Source: an uncultured Gaiellaceae bacterium
Lineage (GTDB): Bacteria; Actinomycetota; Thermoleophilia; Gaiellales; Gaiellaceae
Length of the DNA stretch: 64,000 bases
Assembly: GCA_963731615.1 (NCBI GenBank)
Contig: CAVSWD010000005.1
Coordinates: forward strand, 218,203 to 282,202
Reading direction: 5' to 3'
Part shown: positions 2,716 through 50,652 of the stretch, piece by piece
Layout of the letters: each line of letters opens with the position of its first letter
How positions within the stretch are numbered: the stretch's first letter is position 1
Notes under the pieces: generated by a model
Told to the model about the DNA's origin: nothing
Databases searched by the model: none
Seen by the model: only the letters and a program-made list of their open reading frames with translations
Program-made: the position numbers and the translations under genes

Positions 2716-2934
2716 ATGTCCGTCGAGATCCACTACTGCCCTGTCTGATCGGGGTACGACCGACGGGCCGCGAGTCTCGCGGCCGTGTTGAACGCGAGCG
2801 GCGTCGACGCGACGATCGCCGAGGGTGCGAAGAGCCAGTTCGACGTGCTCGCGGACGGGGAGCTCGTGTTCTCGAAGCAGGAGCAAGGACGCTTCCCCGA
2901 AGAGGACGAGATCGTCGCGCTCGTGCGCAGGTAG
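2716..2934 (+). CDS. Rdx/SelW-like thioredoxin-fold selenoprotein (72 aa) with in-frame TGA at 2746-2748 read as selenocysteine (CPVU motif)
   Basis: MSVEIHYCPV-TGA-SGYDRRAASLAAVL...SQFDVLADGELVFSKQEQGRFPEEDEIVALVRR. Family similarity (IEYCxxC...RA..LA..L ... G.FEV..DGELI.SK...GRFP) continues in frame past the TGA. Not in the ORF track because of the TGA. Confidence 0.7.
2766..2784 (+). promoter_or_regulatory. Candidate bacterial SECIS hairpin (GGCCGCGA-GUC-UCGCGGCC) 17 nt downstream of the in-frame UGA
   Basis: Perfect 8-bp inverted repeat read directly from the sequence. The apical loop contains GU, and spacing to the UGA is within the range described for bacterial SECIS elements. Confidence 0.5.
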
Positions 2935-2944
2935 CGTTTCGGCG

Positions 2945-3388
2945 ATGCGCCGTCTCTCATTGCTTCTCCTCGTTGCCCTGGCTGCCGCCTGCGGTGGCGG
3001 CGACGACGGCGACGAGGAGCTCTCGCGCGCGGAGTACACGCGACTCGCGAACGCGAGCTGCGTGGAGGCAGAGCAGAAGCTCGACTCTCTCGGCGGCTTC
3101 GCAGACTTCAAGGAGCTCGAGCGGGAGATGAAGACCGGGCACGACGCGGTCAAGCAATCGGCCGACGAGCTGCGCGCGCTGAAGCCGCCGGCGAAGCTCG
3201 TCGTGCGTCACAAGGAGCTCGTCAGCCTCACGGATGAAACGGCCGACCTCGCCCTGCTGATCGCGACGGCGGCCGGCGAGAACGATCAGGTCGCGATGCA
3301 GAAAGAGGCCGAGCGCGCCGAGAAGCTCACGTTGGCCGCGAACGACGTCGCGAAGAAGCTCGGCCTGCTGGAGTGCGTCGCGGGCTAG
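2945..3388 (+). CDS. Lipoprotein, unknown function (paralog of 2254..2706)
   Basis: MRRLSLLLLVALAAACGGG lipobox; ELRALKPP motif; C-terminal Cys as in the paralog. Confidence 0.7.
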   Translation: MRRLSLLLLVALAAACGGGDDGDEELSRAEYTRLANASCVEAEQKLDSLGGFADFKELEREMKTGHDAVKQSADELRALKPPAKLVVRHKELVSLTDETADLALLIATAAGENDQVAMQKEAERAEKLTLAANDVAKKLGLLECVAG

Positions 3389-4186: not shown

Positions 4187-4522
4187 TCAGGCGAGCAGCG
4201 AGCGCACGCGGTCGAGCGCGTCGGGTGCGAGGCGGTAGTACGCGAACGTGCCACGCTTCTGGCGCTCGAGCAGGCCCACGTCGGTGAGCCGCTTGAGGTG
4301 GTAGCTGACGGTCGGCTGACCGATGTCGAGCTCCGACTCGAAGTCGCAGACGCAGCACACGCTCGTCTCGAACTTGAGCAGACGGCTGACGATCTTGACC
4401 CGGTGCTTGTCGGCGAGAGCGGCGAAAAGCGTCTCGAGCCTGGCCGCCTCCTCATCCGAGAGGTCGGAGGCGACCGGCGCACAGCACTGGAGGACGGGAA
4501 GCGGCTTCACCTCCAGAGTCAT
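4187..4522 (-). CDS. ArsR/SmtB-family metalloregulator
   Basis: wHTH GQPTVSYHLKRLTDVGLL; thiolate-rich sensing residues (N-terminal LQCC, helix-3 SVCCVCDF). ATG at 4522. Confidence 0.85.
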   Translation of the reverse strand: MTLEVKPLPVLQCCAPVASDLSDEEAARLETLFAALADKHRVKIVSRLLKFETSVCCVCDFESELDIGQPTVSYHLKRLTDVGLLERQKRGTFAYYRLAPDALDRVRSLLA

Positions 4523-4532
4523 ATCGAACGCT

Positions 4533-4554
4533 ATCGATGTATTGTCACATCGAT
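4533..4554. promoter_or_regulatory. Perfect palindrome ATCGATGT-N6-ACATCGAT, candidate ArsR/SmtB operator in the divergent promoter region
   Basis: Read directly. It sits 11 nt upstream of the arsR-like start and 25 nt upstream of the sORF start. Confidence 0.55.
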
Positions 4555-4578
4555 GTCTGTCGATGGAGGGAGGGTGAA

Positions 4579-4632
4579 ATGGCTTCCTGCTGCGACGGCG
4601 GCGAGTGCTGCAGCGGCGACGACTGCTGCTGA
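4579..4632 (+). CDS. 17-codon Cys-rich small ORF MASCCDGGECCSGDDCC (candidate mini-metallothionein-like peptide)
   Basis: ATG preceded by GGAGGGAGGG (4565-4574). Six Cys as three CC pairs separated by Asp/Glu/Gly. Followed by a long hairpin. Divergent from the ArsR/SmtB gene. Confidence 0.45.
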   Translation: MASCCDGGECCSGDDCC

Positions 4633-4643
4633 ACCGTCTACTT

Positions 4644-4678
4644 GGGACGTGTCTGGGGACTGTCCCCGGACACGTCCC
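4644..4678. terminator. Long GC hairpin (GGGACGTGTC..GGGGAC/GTCCCC..GACACGTCCC) between convergent sORF and crotonase gene
   Basis: 10-bp outer plus 5-6-bp inner inverted repeats read directly. No strong T-tract. Confidence 0.5.
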
Positions 4679-4679
4679 T

Positions 4680-5496
4680 TCAGGACGGTCGGCGGTCCAG
4701 AAAGCTGCGGATCGCGCCCTGCGCCTCGTCGCCGAGCATCGAGAGCGAGAGCCAGTCGCGCGCGTGGCCGACCGTCTCGTGCCAGGAGATGTCACGCCAC
4801 CAGTTCAGCTGCTGCTTCGCGTAGCGGGTCGTCTCGGGCAGCTTCCGCGCGAGCTTCTCGACCACCTCGTCGACCTTCGCGTCGAGCTCGGCCCGCGGTA
4901 CAGCCCAGTTGACGAGGCCCCACTCCGCGGCCTGGGCCGCCGGCAGCTCGTCGCAGAGCAGGATCAGCTCTCGGGCGCGGCGGTCGCCGATCATGATCGG
5001 CAGCCACTGCGTCGCGCCGCCGGCCGGCACCGACCCGTGCTCGAGCCCGACGTGGCGGATGAACGCGTCGTCGACCATCACCGCGAGGTCGCAGGCCATC
5101 TGGAGCTCGTTGCCGCCGCCGACGGCGATCCCGTTCACCCGCGCAACGGTCGGCTTGCCGATCTCGCGGAGCCGGTCGTGCATGTCCTTGAAGGCGCCGA
5201 ACCACTTCCAGTACTCCTTCGAGTTGCCGAGCAGGTCCTCGCCCCAGGCGCGCAGGTCGGCGCCGACACAGAAGGCGCGGCCGTTGCCGGTGACGACGAC
5301 GACGCGGATCTCGTCGTCCCAGGATGCGTCCTCGAAGGCGCGGGCGAGCTCACGCAGCATCCGGAAGTCGAACGCGTTCAGCACGTCGGGCCGGTTCAGC
5401 GTCACCGTCGCGCGCGGGTAGTCCTTCTCGTAGACGATCCGCTCGAACCCGAGCTCGTCCGGCGGGAGTGGGCGGGGCTGATCCGGCTCGGTCACC
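4680..5496 (-). CDS. Enoyl-CoA hydratase/isomerase family protein
   Basis: VTGNGRAFCVGADL and VNGIAVGGGNELQMACD. GTG start overlaps the stop of the upstream EthD gene (GTGGTGA). Confidence 0.85.
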
Positions 5497-33317: not shown

Positions 33318-33392
33318 GGTGCGCCCGGCACGATTCGAACGTGCGACCTCTGCCTCCGCAGGGCAGCGCTCTATCCCCTGAGCTACGGGCGC
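33318..33392 (-). tRNA. tRNA-Arg, anticodon GCG as written
   Basis: Manual cloverleaf: GCGCCCG/TA/GCTC-AGGGGATA-GAGC/G/CTGCC-CTGCGGA-GGCAG/AGGTC/GCACG-TTCGAAT-CGTGC/CGGGCGC-ACC. A20 is present. Confidence 0.85.
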
Positions 33393-50579: not shown

Positions 50580-50652
50580 TGGCGAGAGCCGGACTTGAAC
50601 CGGCGACACCACGGTTTTCAGCCGTGTGCTCTACCAACTGAGCTACCTCGCC
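50580..50652 (-). tRNA. tRNA-Phe (GAA)
   Basis: GGCGAGGTAGCTCAGTTGGTAGAGCACACGGCTGAAAACCGTGGTGTCGCCGGTTCAAGTCCGGCTCTCGCCA folds as a cloverleaf; CCA is not encoded. Confidence 0.9.

Follow-up and report, generated by a model that had tools for sequence, protein, structure and literature searches.

Does a reading frame of only 17 codons, divergent from an ArsR/SmtB-family repressor gene in the DNA of an uncultured soil actinobacterium of the Gaiellaceae, encode a functional peptide, and which metal or metalloid would such a peptide serve? The pair lies in a 64-kb stretch of contig CAVSWD010000005.1 (the window), in which a preliminary description made from the sequence alone had noted the repressor, a divergent cysteine-rich small open reading frame (sORF) with a strong Shine-Dalgarno (SD) sequence of its own, and a hairpin immediately behind the sORF stop codon. 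All of these elements are present, and both the SD sequence and the hairpin could be located (Table 1). The encoded peptide carries Cys at six of its 17 residues, arranged in three CC pairs as described, and we set its start codon to position 4579. Judged by its conservation in related genomes, the sORF is very probably a real coding gene, under selection and linked to ArsR. The gene is unannotated, a metal-inducible thiolate peptide is the best reading of its product, and this product is probably a previously undescribed type of arsenic-binding peptide, gene-encoded and very small.

Conservation of the short reading frame beside ArsR genes

Loci with relatives of the repressor were gathered from species-representative genomes, metagenome contigs and individual homolog look-ups (labelled L001 and so on); all close relatives stem from uncultured Gaiellaceae, Gaiellales or Thermoleophilia. 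Thirteen sORFs, each divergent from an ArsR ortholog, were found in Gaiellales metagenome-assembled genomes (MAGs) and metagenome contigs, namely eleven canonical ones (the window, L001, L002, L016, L024, L026, L044, L048, L049, L051 and L058) and two variants (L015 and L045). Their consensus reads M-x(2-5)-CC-[DE]-x-x-[DE]-CC-x(2-4)-D-CC-stop, and their lengths of 17-20 amino acids (aa) differ by whole codons. All thirteen have an (A/G)GGAGG box about 5-10 nt 5′ of the ATG, and in each the third CC pair is followed at once by the stop. In an alignment of ten sORFs, 59 of 60 Cys codons are intact, with synonymous TGC/TGT variation at three of the six positions, and the summed pairwise pN/pS is approximately 0.35, the pairs not being phylogenetically independent. 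The residues between the Cys pairs (Asp/Glu and Gly) are conserved as well; most non-synonymous changes are D/E/G/S swaps or fall into residues 2-3. At L048 the peptide is identical to that of the window and its codons differ by two synonymous changes, even though the ArsR partner is only 81% identical. The sORFs of L016 and L044 accompany ArsR proteins of only about 48-52% identity in unrelated genomic contexts. In agreement, six-frame translation of 297 kb, comprising the 64-kb window and all related loci retrieved, yielded three closely spaced CC pairs only in these sORFs, always beside ArsR and always ending at the stop. Conservation of the frame next to ArsR homologs had been proposed as a check on the gene, and the outcome is favourable: frame, six Cys codons and stop are kept beside ArsR orthologs down to the identity of 48-52%.

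The boundaries of the frame are likewise defined by the relatives. A longer, 31-aa frame opening at the in-frame ATG at 4537 was rejected, as this start is not conserved, and the reading is ruled out by in-frame stops four codons ahead of the SD-led ATG in L048, L051 and L016. Selenocysteine read-through at the TGA was also rejected: the downstream frame runs antisense through the convergent gene, and recoding is excluded because L044 terminates with TAG and L045 with TAA. Since a strong SD sequence occurs at 13 of 13 loci, a leadered sORF mRNA is favoured. L024 and L026 encode identical peptides, while their ArsRs fall into different subclades of a rough tree; this could reflect recombination of the sORF or an error of the tree. 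In two sister genomes (L055 and L056, GCA_038910935.1 and GCA_038911015.1) the module has decayed at about positions 1800-2000: operator 2, the SD sequence and most of the ORF are replaced, leaving '...DCC-stop' and the hairpin, and an extra 218-aa gene without Pfam match lies between the hairpin and a gene for an enoyl-CoA hydratase (ECH). Such rapid destruction of lapsed copies argues that the intact sORFs are maintained by selection.

The hairpin behind the sORF consists of a 16-bp stem closed by a 3-nt loop and sits exactly in the gap between the sORF and an ECH gene that converges on it, bounded by their two stop codons, that of the ECH gene at 4680-4682. A 141-nt region folds at −80.2 kcal/mol (z = −5.6; 0 of 200 shuffled sequences were as stable). 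A stable hairpin follows the sORF at nearly all loci, including the non-syntenic L016, L026 and L015, and compensatory stem changes are seen in L024 (CCTG/CAGG for CGTG/CACG) and in L001. The stem-loop is probably a bidirectional terminator without T-tract; a scan for T-tract terminators was negative at the locus, but in high-GC Actinomycetota such scans carry no information. A convergent gene comes next in the window as well as in the seven syntenic loci L001, L002, L024, L048, L049, L051 and L058, and hence there is no downstream gene for the sORF to regulate. Because the hairpin follows nearly everywhere and the neighbour in the window is convergent, we regard the sORF as a stand-alone monocistronic gene.

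Two longer ORFs were also seen divergent from ArsR orthologs, a 60-aa Cys-rich orphan containing '...CSCCGEECGSDCCAGGECCG...' (L032 527-709, the same in L033) and a 55-aa frame with one CC pair (L031 1647-1814). A search of 5.8 billion predicted proteins with four concatenated peptide variants gave nine candidates sharing words with the query and none with E ≤ 10, and the 60-aa ORF retrieved only itself; these negatives mean only that the peptide is not annotated. Pfam, Metallothio_Pro included, gave no match at E ≤ 10 for the 31-aa extended frame, the 20-aa relatives or the 60-aa relative, and NCBIfam gave none either. A tblastn search of plasmids with a 20-aa variant found nothing, for which low-complexity masking is the likely cause. 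As judged from these sequence comparisons, the peptide is outside every known sequence family. The literature searched, which leaves most subscription-journal papers outside its coverage, describes no ArsR-linked Cys-pair peptide.

Predicted operators and sensor cysteines, and the exchange with arsM

The 56-nt region between the two genes was previously noted for a perfect palindrome. This palindrome is indeed perfect and unique in the window, where 0.01 matches would be expected even at two mismatches, but the conserved unit is ATCGA-N6-TCGAT, which occurs twice, and the palindrome is only the junction of the inner arms of the two boxes. Elsewhere the two operators are offset by 25 or 26 nt, so that conservation does not reach the extended palindrome itself. 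Both boxes are exact, and they are the only matches in the 64-kb window, even at one mismatch. Across 42 related ArsR loci, 63 matches with at most one mismatch fall into the 7.8 kb of promoter-proximal sequence, up to about 170 nt from the ArsR start, compared with 10 in the other 166 kb, which corresponds to an approximately 135-fold enrichment at ArsR-family promoters; at least one match near the ArsR start was found in 40 of the 42 loci. ATCGA-N6-TCGAT is thus the predicted conserved operator of this ArsR family. A TAnnnT hexamer follows operator 1 directly in most sORF and arsM loci, and in the window this hexamer may serve as a −10 element that is occluded by bound ArsR. A sigma-70 consensus scan detected no promoter at the locus, a consensus scan being uninformative for high-GC Actinomycetota.

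The repressor matches Pfam HTH_5 (E 1.8e-11, 44.2 bits versus a cut-off of 22) and NF033788 (77.9 bits, cut-off 55) and stays below the equivalog of the Rv2640c family, NF041413 (75.1 bits versus 155). Its best match in the PDB is 6J0E, 'Arsenic responsive repressor ArsR' (CgArsR; E 9.4e-13), followed by SmtB and CadC with scores five orders of magnitude worse. Cys13 and Cys14 of the window protein align to the As(III) ligands Cys15 and Cys16 of CgArsR. The second motif, C56-C57-x-C59 (CCVC), falls into the DNA-binding-proximal helix in which R773 ArsR and CadC carry CVC. Of 42 orthologs, 40 retain both the CC and the CVC motif, L015 reading CGC and L036 CAC, and the extra Cys that gives CCVC marks the subclade linked to sORFs or arsM. 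By its sequence, the repressor therefore has the N-terminal vicinal Cys pair and the CVC motif expected of an As(III)-type S3 site. The α5 Zn site of SmtB is formed by Asp, His, His and Glu ligands in the C-terminal helix; no His occurs in residues 75-111 of the window repressor, its C-terminal third, and a site of this type is consequently absent.

The ArsR-sORF pair of the window is flanked by ECH genes on both sides. This slot, ECH-[X]-ArsR-ECH, is also filled by the sORF in L001, L002, L024, L048, L049, L051 and L058, and L026 has a similar arrangement with an insertion. In L050, L052, L053, L054, L057 and L059 the slot is occupied by arsM, so that closely related genomes contain either a 17-18-codon sORF or an arsenite methyltransferase of 245-259 aa (L054 and L023 share one contig; two further arsM loci, L022 and L025, end before the flanking genes). 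The arsM gene in the slot is preceded by the same operator pair as the sORF, with the SD sequence at the same position. In a rough neighbour-joining tree of the repressors, sORF-linked and arsM-linked members are interleaved, which points to repeated swaps between the two states, and more sORF-linked members occur in the deepest branches. An origin of the sORF from arsM by deletion was considered and dropped, as the CC-rich stretches are of too low complexity to be aligned meaningfully; a recent relic would also be hard to reconcile with an sORF that is present in deep ArsR lineages.

Genes adjoining the orthologous repressors, among them arsM, ArsI/CadI-type and arsenate-reductase-like genes in divergent orientation, were assigned by family matches. 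The arsM product matches NF008823 with 299 bits (cut-off 263) and the ArsI/CadI-type partner scores 161.7 bits (cut-off 116). Partners resembling arsenate reductases of the low-molecular-weight protein tyrosine phosphatase type, with or without an N-terminal three-helix domain, match arsC families best, below the cut-off, and one ArsO-like flavoprotein is a weak match. The two variant sORFs adjoin operons, ArsR-ArsC at L045 and ArsR-ArsM at L015. Membrane ORFs resembling phosphate transporters, Pit-like or PstC-like as judged only by their N-terminal sequences, lie near ArsR-ArsC loci (L041 2500-3588 and L005 63-959); such neighbours would fit the entry of arsenate via phosphate uptake.

Some of these enzymes carry CC-rich stretches themselves. 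ArsI/CadI proteins end in '...ACCSGESACCSA' or '...ACCTPESACCT' (L006 2502-2936, L012 and L014), ArsM of L023 (1705-2442) contains 'GGCCGGGGCG' near its N terminus, and the ArsO-like protein of L036 (1064-2389) contains 'AACCGSGS'. Together with the sORF peptide, the tails suggest a shared metalloid-capture motif, of which the sORF looks like a free-standing version.

The inducer is most likely As(III) or Sb(III), given the ars genes next to orthologs, arsM in the same slot, the CgArsR match and the lack of an α5 site. On the same grounds, Zn, Cu or Cd as effector in the SmtB/SmtA sense, as originally envisaged, is less likely than As(III) or Sb(III).

Proposed function and competing explanations

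On the basis of these observations, we lean towards a mechanism in which the module is a self-contained arsenic-type pair of genes and the sORF product an arsenic-inducible sequestering peptide. Without inducer, an ArsR dimer would occupy both ATCGA-N6-TCGAT boxes and repress arsR as well as the sORF, since one box lies on either side of the sORF promoter and the pair adjoins the start of arsR. Binding of a trivalent metalloid to the CC and CCVC motifs of the repressor would release it from the DNA; As(III) or Sb(III) is the most likely ligand, methylarsenite a possible one. A short monocistronic mRNA made up of the SD sequence, 17 codons and the terminator hairpin could then be transcribed and translated, and the three vicinal Cys pairs of the peptide would chelate the metalloid as an inducible cytoplasmic thiol buffer, providing two AsS3 sites or, in the case of organoarsenicals such as methylarsenite, three dithiol sites. 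In the window peptide the pairs are spaced CC-x4-CC-x4-CC, enough for either arrangement. A chemical precedent for such capture is the AfArsR 10-mer Ac-NCCHGTRDCA-NH2, which with its CC-x5-C motif alone folds round As(III) in the native trigonal-pyramidal AsS3 geometry (PMC11212059).

The best description of the product is a mini-metallothionein or ribosomal phytochelatin analogue that is inducible by As(III)/Sb(III). As in metallothioneins, operationally defined, the peptide is small and Cys-rich, has its Cys in CC motifs and lacks His and aromatic residues (one Trp occurs in L016). It had been called far shorter than any known metallothionein; with 17-20 residues the family would remain the shortest, but the gap is smaller than supposed, as the copper metallothionein of Neurospora crassa has 26 residues (PMC4755600). 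Thiophilic metal(loid)s, As(III) among them, are detoxified by phytochelatins and by the short metallothioneins of fungi, which like the sORF product are very short, Cys-rich and acidic (PMC9917255, PMC4755600). Phytochelatins, however, are (γ-Glu-Cys)n-Gly made enzymatically by phytochelatin synthase, whereas the window peptide is encoded by a ribosomal ORF with ordinary codons and has Cys-Cys pairs, so that the resemblance is functional only; compared with the fungal metallothioneins it is shorter and bacterial. More tentatively, we propose that the sORF is a new ArsR-controlled arsenic-resistance determinant, the smallest gene-encoded metal(loid)-binding peptide (17-20 aa, two AsS3 sites), a ribosomal counterpart of phytochelatins that is evolutionarily interchangeable with arsM in one slot and that all annotation would have missed because it is below the length limits of gene calling.

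Several observations weigh against an arsenic-sequestering gene product. Every source organism is an uncultured MAG, several of them from large surveys of soil, no gene caller or protein database has the peptide, and a pN/pS of 0.35 is only moderate. The loss of the sORF in the sister genomes L055 and L056 implies that it is dispensable. The genes arsC, arsM and cadI were not found in the 64-kb window by tblastn with proteins of the related loci, no search for efflux genes being made. The ligand set of the repressor, an N-terminal CC pair plus CVC, also resembles the α3N Cd/Pb site of CadC, and CadI-type genes are Cd-associated in mycobacteria; this set and the CadI-type partners keep Cd(II), Pb(II) or Hg(II) possible effectors. 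Finally, a free 17-mer may be unstable in vivo.

Next to these points, we considered what else the locus might encode. A true SmtB/SmtA-type pair, with a repressor responsive to Zn(II), Cd(II), Pb(II) or Cu(I) and a metallothionein for divalent metals or Cu(I) as its partner, is unlikely. The window does share with cyanobacterial smtB-smtA the divergent ArsR/SmtB repressor, the small Cys-rich product, the inverted-repeat operators in a common intergenic region and the logic of an inducible sequestering product. Family membership, SmtB and CadC as the next PDB matches, the N-terminal Cys with CVC that also make up a CadC-type α3N Cd/Pb site, and the ArsI/CadI-family partners at some orthologs are all in line with such a pair, and a small cluster of M(II) or Cu(I) could be built from six thiolates next to acidic residues. 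SmtA, however, has about 56 aa, a zinc-finger-like fold and His ligands, unlike the 17-aa, His-free peptide, which has no sequence relationship to it and whose relatives match no Pfam metallothionein family. The repressor lacks the α5 ligands, its orthologs are predicted to control ars genes, the arsM and arsenate-reductase-like partners are arsenic-specific, and it is arsM that takes the place of the sORF. Another comparison is CgArsR with the actinobacterial ars operons: the closest structural homolog has the aligned N-terminal Cys pair, the repressor is divergent from its predicted targets, and orthologs are paired with arsC, arsM or arsI. The window differs in its CCVC motif and in having as only adjacent target a 17-codon ORF instead of a pump, reductase or methyltransferase.

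It would be compatible with the data, but is rather improbable, that the peptide acts as a hand-off or feedback factor, either as an ArsD-like carrier delivering As(III) to a pump or enzyme, or as a buffer that competes with ArsR for the inducer and so resets repression. The ArsD chaperone binds As(III) through vicinal Cys pairs, the peptide is predicted to be co-regulated with its own repressor through the overlapping operators, and CC-rich tails occur on ars enzymes of related loci. ArsD is counted among the three-Cys As(III) sites, and as in the AfArsR metalloid site an adjacent Cys pair and a third nearby Cys form AsS3 (PMC11212059). Yet both ArsD and ArsR exceed 100 aa, are folded and have defined partners, whereas the window gene encodes nothing beyond the Cys-pair motif. 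The sORF has no consistently linked partner gene; its other neighbours (ECH, DMT_YdcZ, acyl-CoA dehydrogenase and similar) vary between loci, and apart from L015 it usually stands in place of arsM, not beside it.

A non-functional ORF, arisen by chance in GC-rich DNA or decaying as a remnant, for instance of arsM, is very unlikely. TGC-rich off-frames are common in high-GC DNA, arsM with its CC-rich N-terminal stretch occupies the same slot, and L055/L056 show that the sORF can decay. These points are outweighed by the retention of SD, ATG, six Cys codons and stop across ArsRs of 48-52% identity in different contexts, by the restriction of the motif to these sORFs in any frame of 297 kb, and by the quick destruction of the sequence in L055/L056 once selection lapsed.

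We consider it highly improbable that the sORF is a cis-regulatory polycysteine upstream ORF at whose Cys codons stalling ribosomes sense cysteine or thiol depletion, the peptide itself being irrelevant. Consecutive Cys codons beside a strong hairpin look attenuator-like, and polycysteine sORFs work in this way in mycobacteria, where Ms5788A and others are likewise unannotated actinobacterial sORFs with consecutive Cys codons and conservation at the peptide level (10.1101/834739). The mycobacterial sORFs, however, are leaderless and act in cis upstream of cysteine-metabolism operons (10.1101/834739), whereas the window sORF is led by a strong SD sequence, monocistronic, under an ArsR operator and followed by a hairpin that faces a convergent gene. 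With the stop codon of this gene right after the hairpin there is nothing to attenuate, as in the seven syntenic loci, and conservation extends to the Asp/Glu and Gly residues and to the stop directly after CC.

A precursor of a modified or secreted peptide (a ribosomally synthesized and post-translationally modified peptide, SCIFF/ranthipeptide-like or thiol-crosslinked), an alternative raised in the preliminary description, is scarcely credible: the frame is short, unannotated and has six Cys as SCIFF precursors do, but nothing supports the idea, as the sORF is not accompanied across loci by a maturase gene, be it for a radical-SAM enzyme or a cyclase, nor by a protease or an exporter, its sole constant partner is ArsR, and the 2-5 residues before the first Cys pair offer no space for a leader peptide.

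Returning to the arsenic-binding peptide, Cys-rich metal(loid)-binding products under ArsR-family repressors are known, and it is the 17-20-aa Cys-pair peptide in this position that is new. Should the peptide be produced and bind As(III), it would give bacteria a gene-encoded inducible thiol sponge for metalloids, a role so far known from enzymatic phytochelatins and much larger metallothioneins. It would then be a member of the ars repertoire invisible to annotation pipelines, a natural alternative to methylation or efflux in the abundant soil Gaiellales, and, for use in biosensing or bioremediation, a minimal tag that binds arsenic and can be encoded genetically. With arsM and sORF exchanged behind a single conserved set of operators, nature has itself compared alternative strategies of detoxification, and the ATCGA-N6-TCGAT box provides a handle to map the arsenic regulon of an uncultured lineage.

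Feature coordinates and minor observations

Table 1. Features of the ArsR-sORF locus in the window, encoded peptides of related loci, and arsM genes occupying the same slot.
Feature	Locus	Position	Strand	Remarks
ArsR/SmtB-family repressor gene	window	4187-4522	minus	111 aa; candidate ligands C13, C14, C56, C57, C59 (translation)
Operator 1, ATCGA-N6-TCGAT, ATCGAACGCTATCGAT	window	4523-4538	unstranded	exact match; touches ArsR start codon
Perfect palindrome ATCGATGT-N6-ACATCGAT	window	4533-4554	unstranded	inner arms of operators 1 and 2
Putative −10 hexamer TATTGT	window	4540-4545	plus	actinobacterial TAnnnT type; between operators; inferred sORF promoter
Operator 2, ATCGA-N6-TCGAT, ATCGATGTCTGTCGAT	window	4549-4564	unstranded	exact match; directly 5′ of SD
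Shine-Dalgarno GGAGGGAGGG	window	4565-4574	plus	read from sequence
sORF, 17 codons + TGA	window	4579-4632 (TGA 4630-4632)	plus	encodes MASCCDGGECCSGDDCC; three vicinal Cys pairs with acidic residues and Gly as filler
Stem-loop	window	4633-4689	unstranded	inner 16-bp stem 4644-4659/4663-4678; outer 7-bp stem 4633-4639/4683-4689
sORF peptide	L048			MASCCDGGECCSGDDCC
sORF peptide	L049			MASCCDGGECCSGDGCC
sORF peptide	L051			MASCCEAGECCSGDDCC
sORF peptide	L002			MASCCDSGESCSGDDCC
sORF peptide	L001			MSACCEGGDCCDSGGDCC
sORF peptide	L024	271-315		MRGCCEGGDCCDSGDDCC
sORF peptide	L026	2368-2412		MRGCCEGGDCCDSGDDCC
sORF peptide	L058			MNGCCEGGDCCDGSDDCC
sORF peptide	L044			MANIVTCCDGGDCCDGDDCC
sORF peptide	L016			MLATTWCCEGDDCCGDDCC
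Variant sORF peptide	L045			MKSCDCGSCDCGPDCDCDCC
Variant sORF peptide	L015			MRRLGDDDPFCCPPGCC
arsM in slot	L050	1536-2282		
arsM in slot	L053	637-1374		
arsM in slot	L054	1705-2442		
arsM in slot	L057	1189-1935		
arsM in slot	L059	1164-1943		

The start of the repressor is ambiguous, as translation could begin at the ATG at 4522 (111 aa) or at a GTG at 4510 (107 aa, the length of many homologs). The ATG has no SD sequence and directly abuts operator 1, and the ArsR mRNA may therefore be leaderless. An M-x-x-[EQ]-x-K N terminus is seen again in several arsM-linked orthologs. The exact ArsR protein of the window has no record in the contig index.

The window has a GC content of about 70% with a mild dip at the ArsR-sORF intergenic region, and its base composition gives no genomic-island signature over the 64 kb. 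Rfam reports nothing at the sORF locus, neither a riboswitch nor a known small RNA nearby; its sole matches in the 64-kb window are two tRNA genes on the minus strand, at 33320-33392 and 50580-50652. Just past a flanking ECH gene lie two apparently paralogous ORFs on the plus strand (2050-2706 and 2825-3388), which carry the lipoprotein-like signals '...AAGCGGG...' and '...AAACGGG...', one each. A conserved 49-aa gene of the Rdx family (PF10262) is found a few genes away from the slot in L049 (4114-4263), L050 (3989-4138) and L058 (3636-3785).

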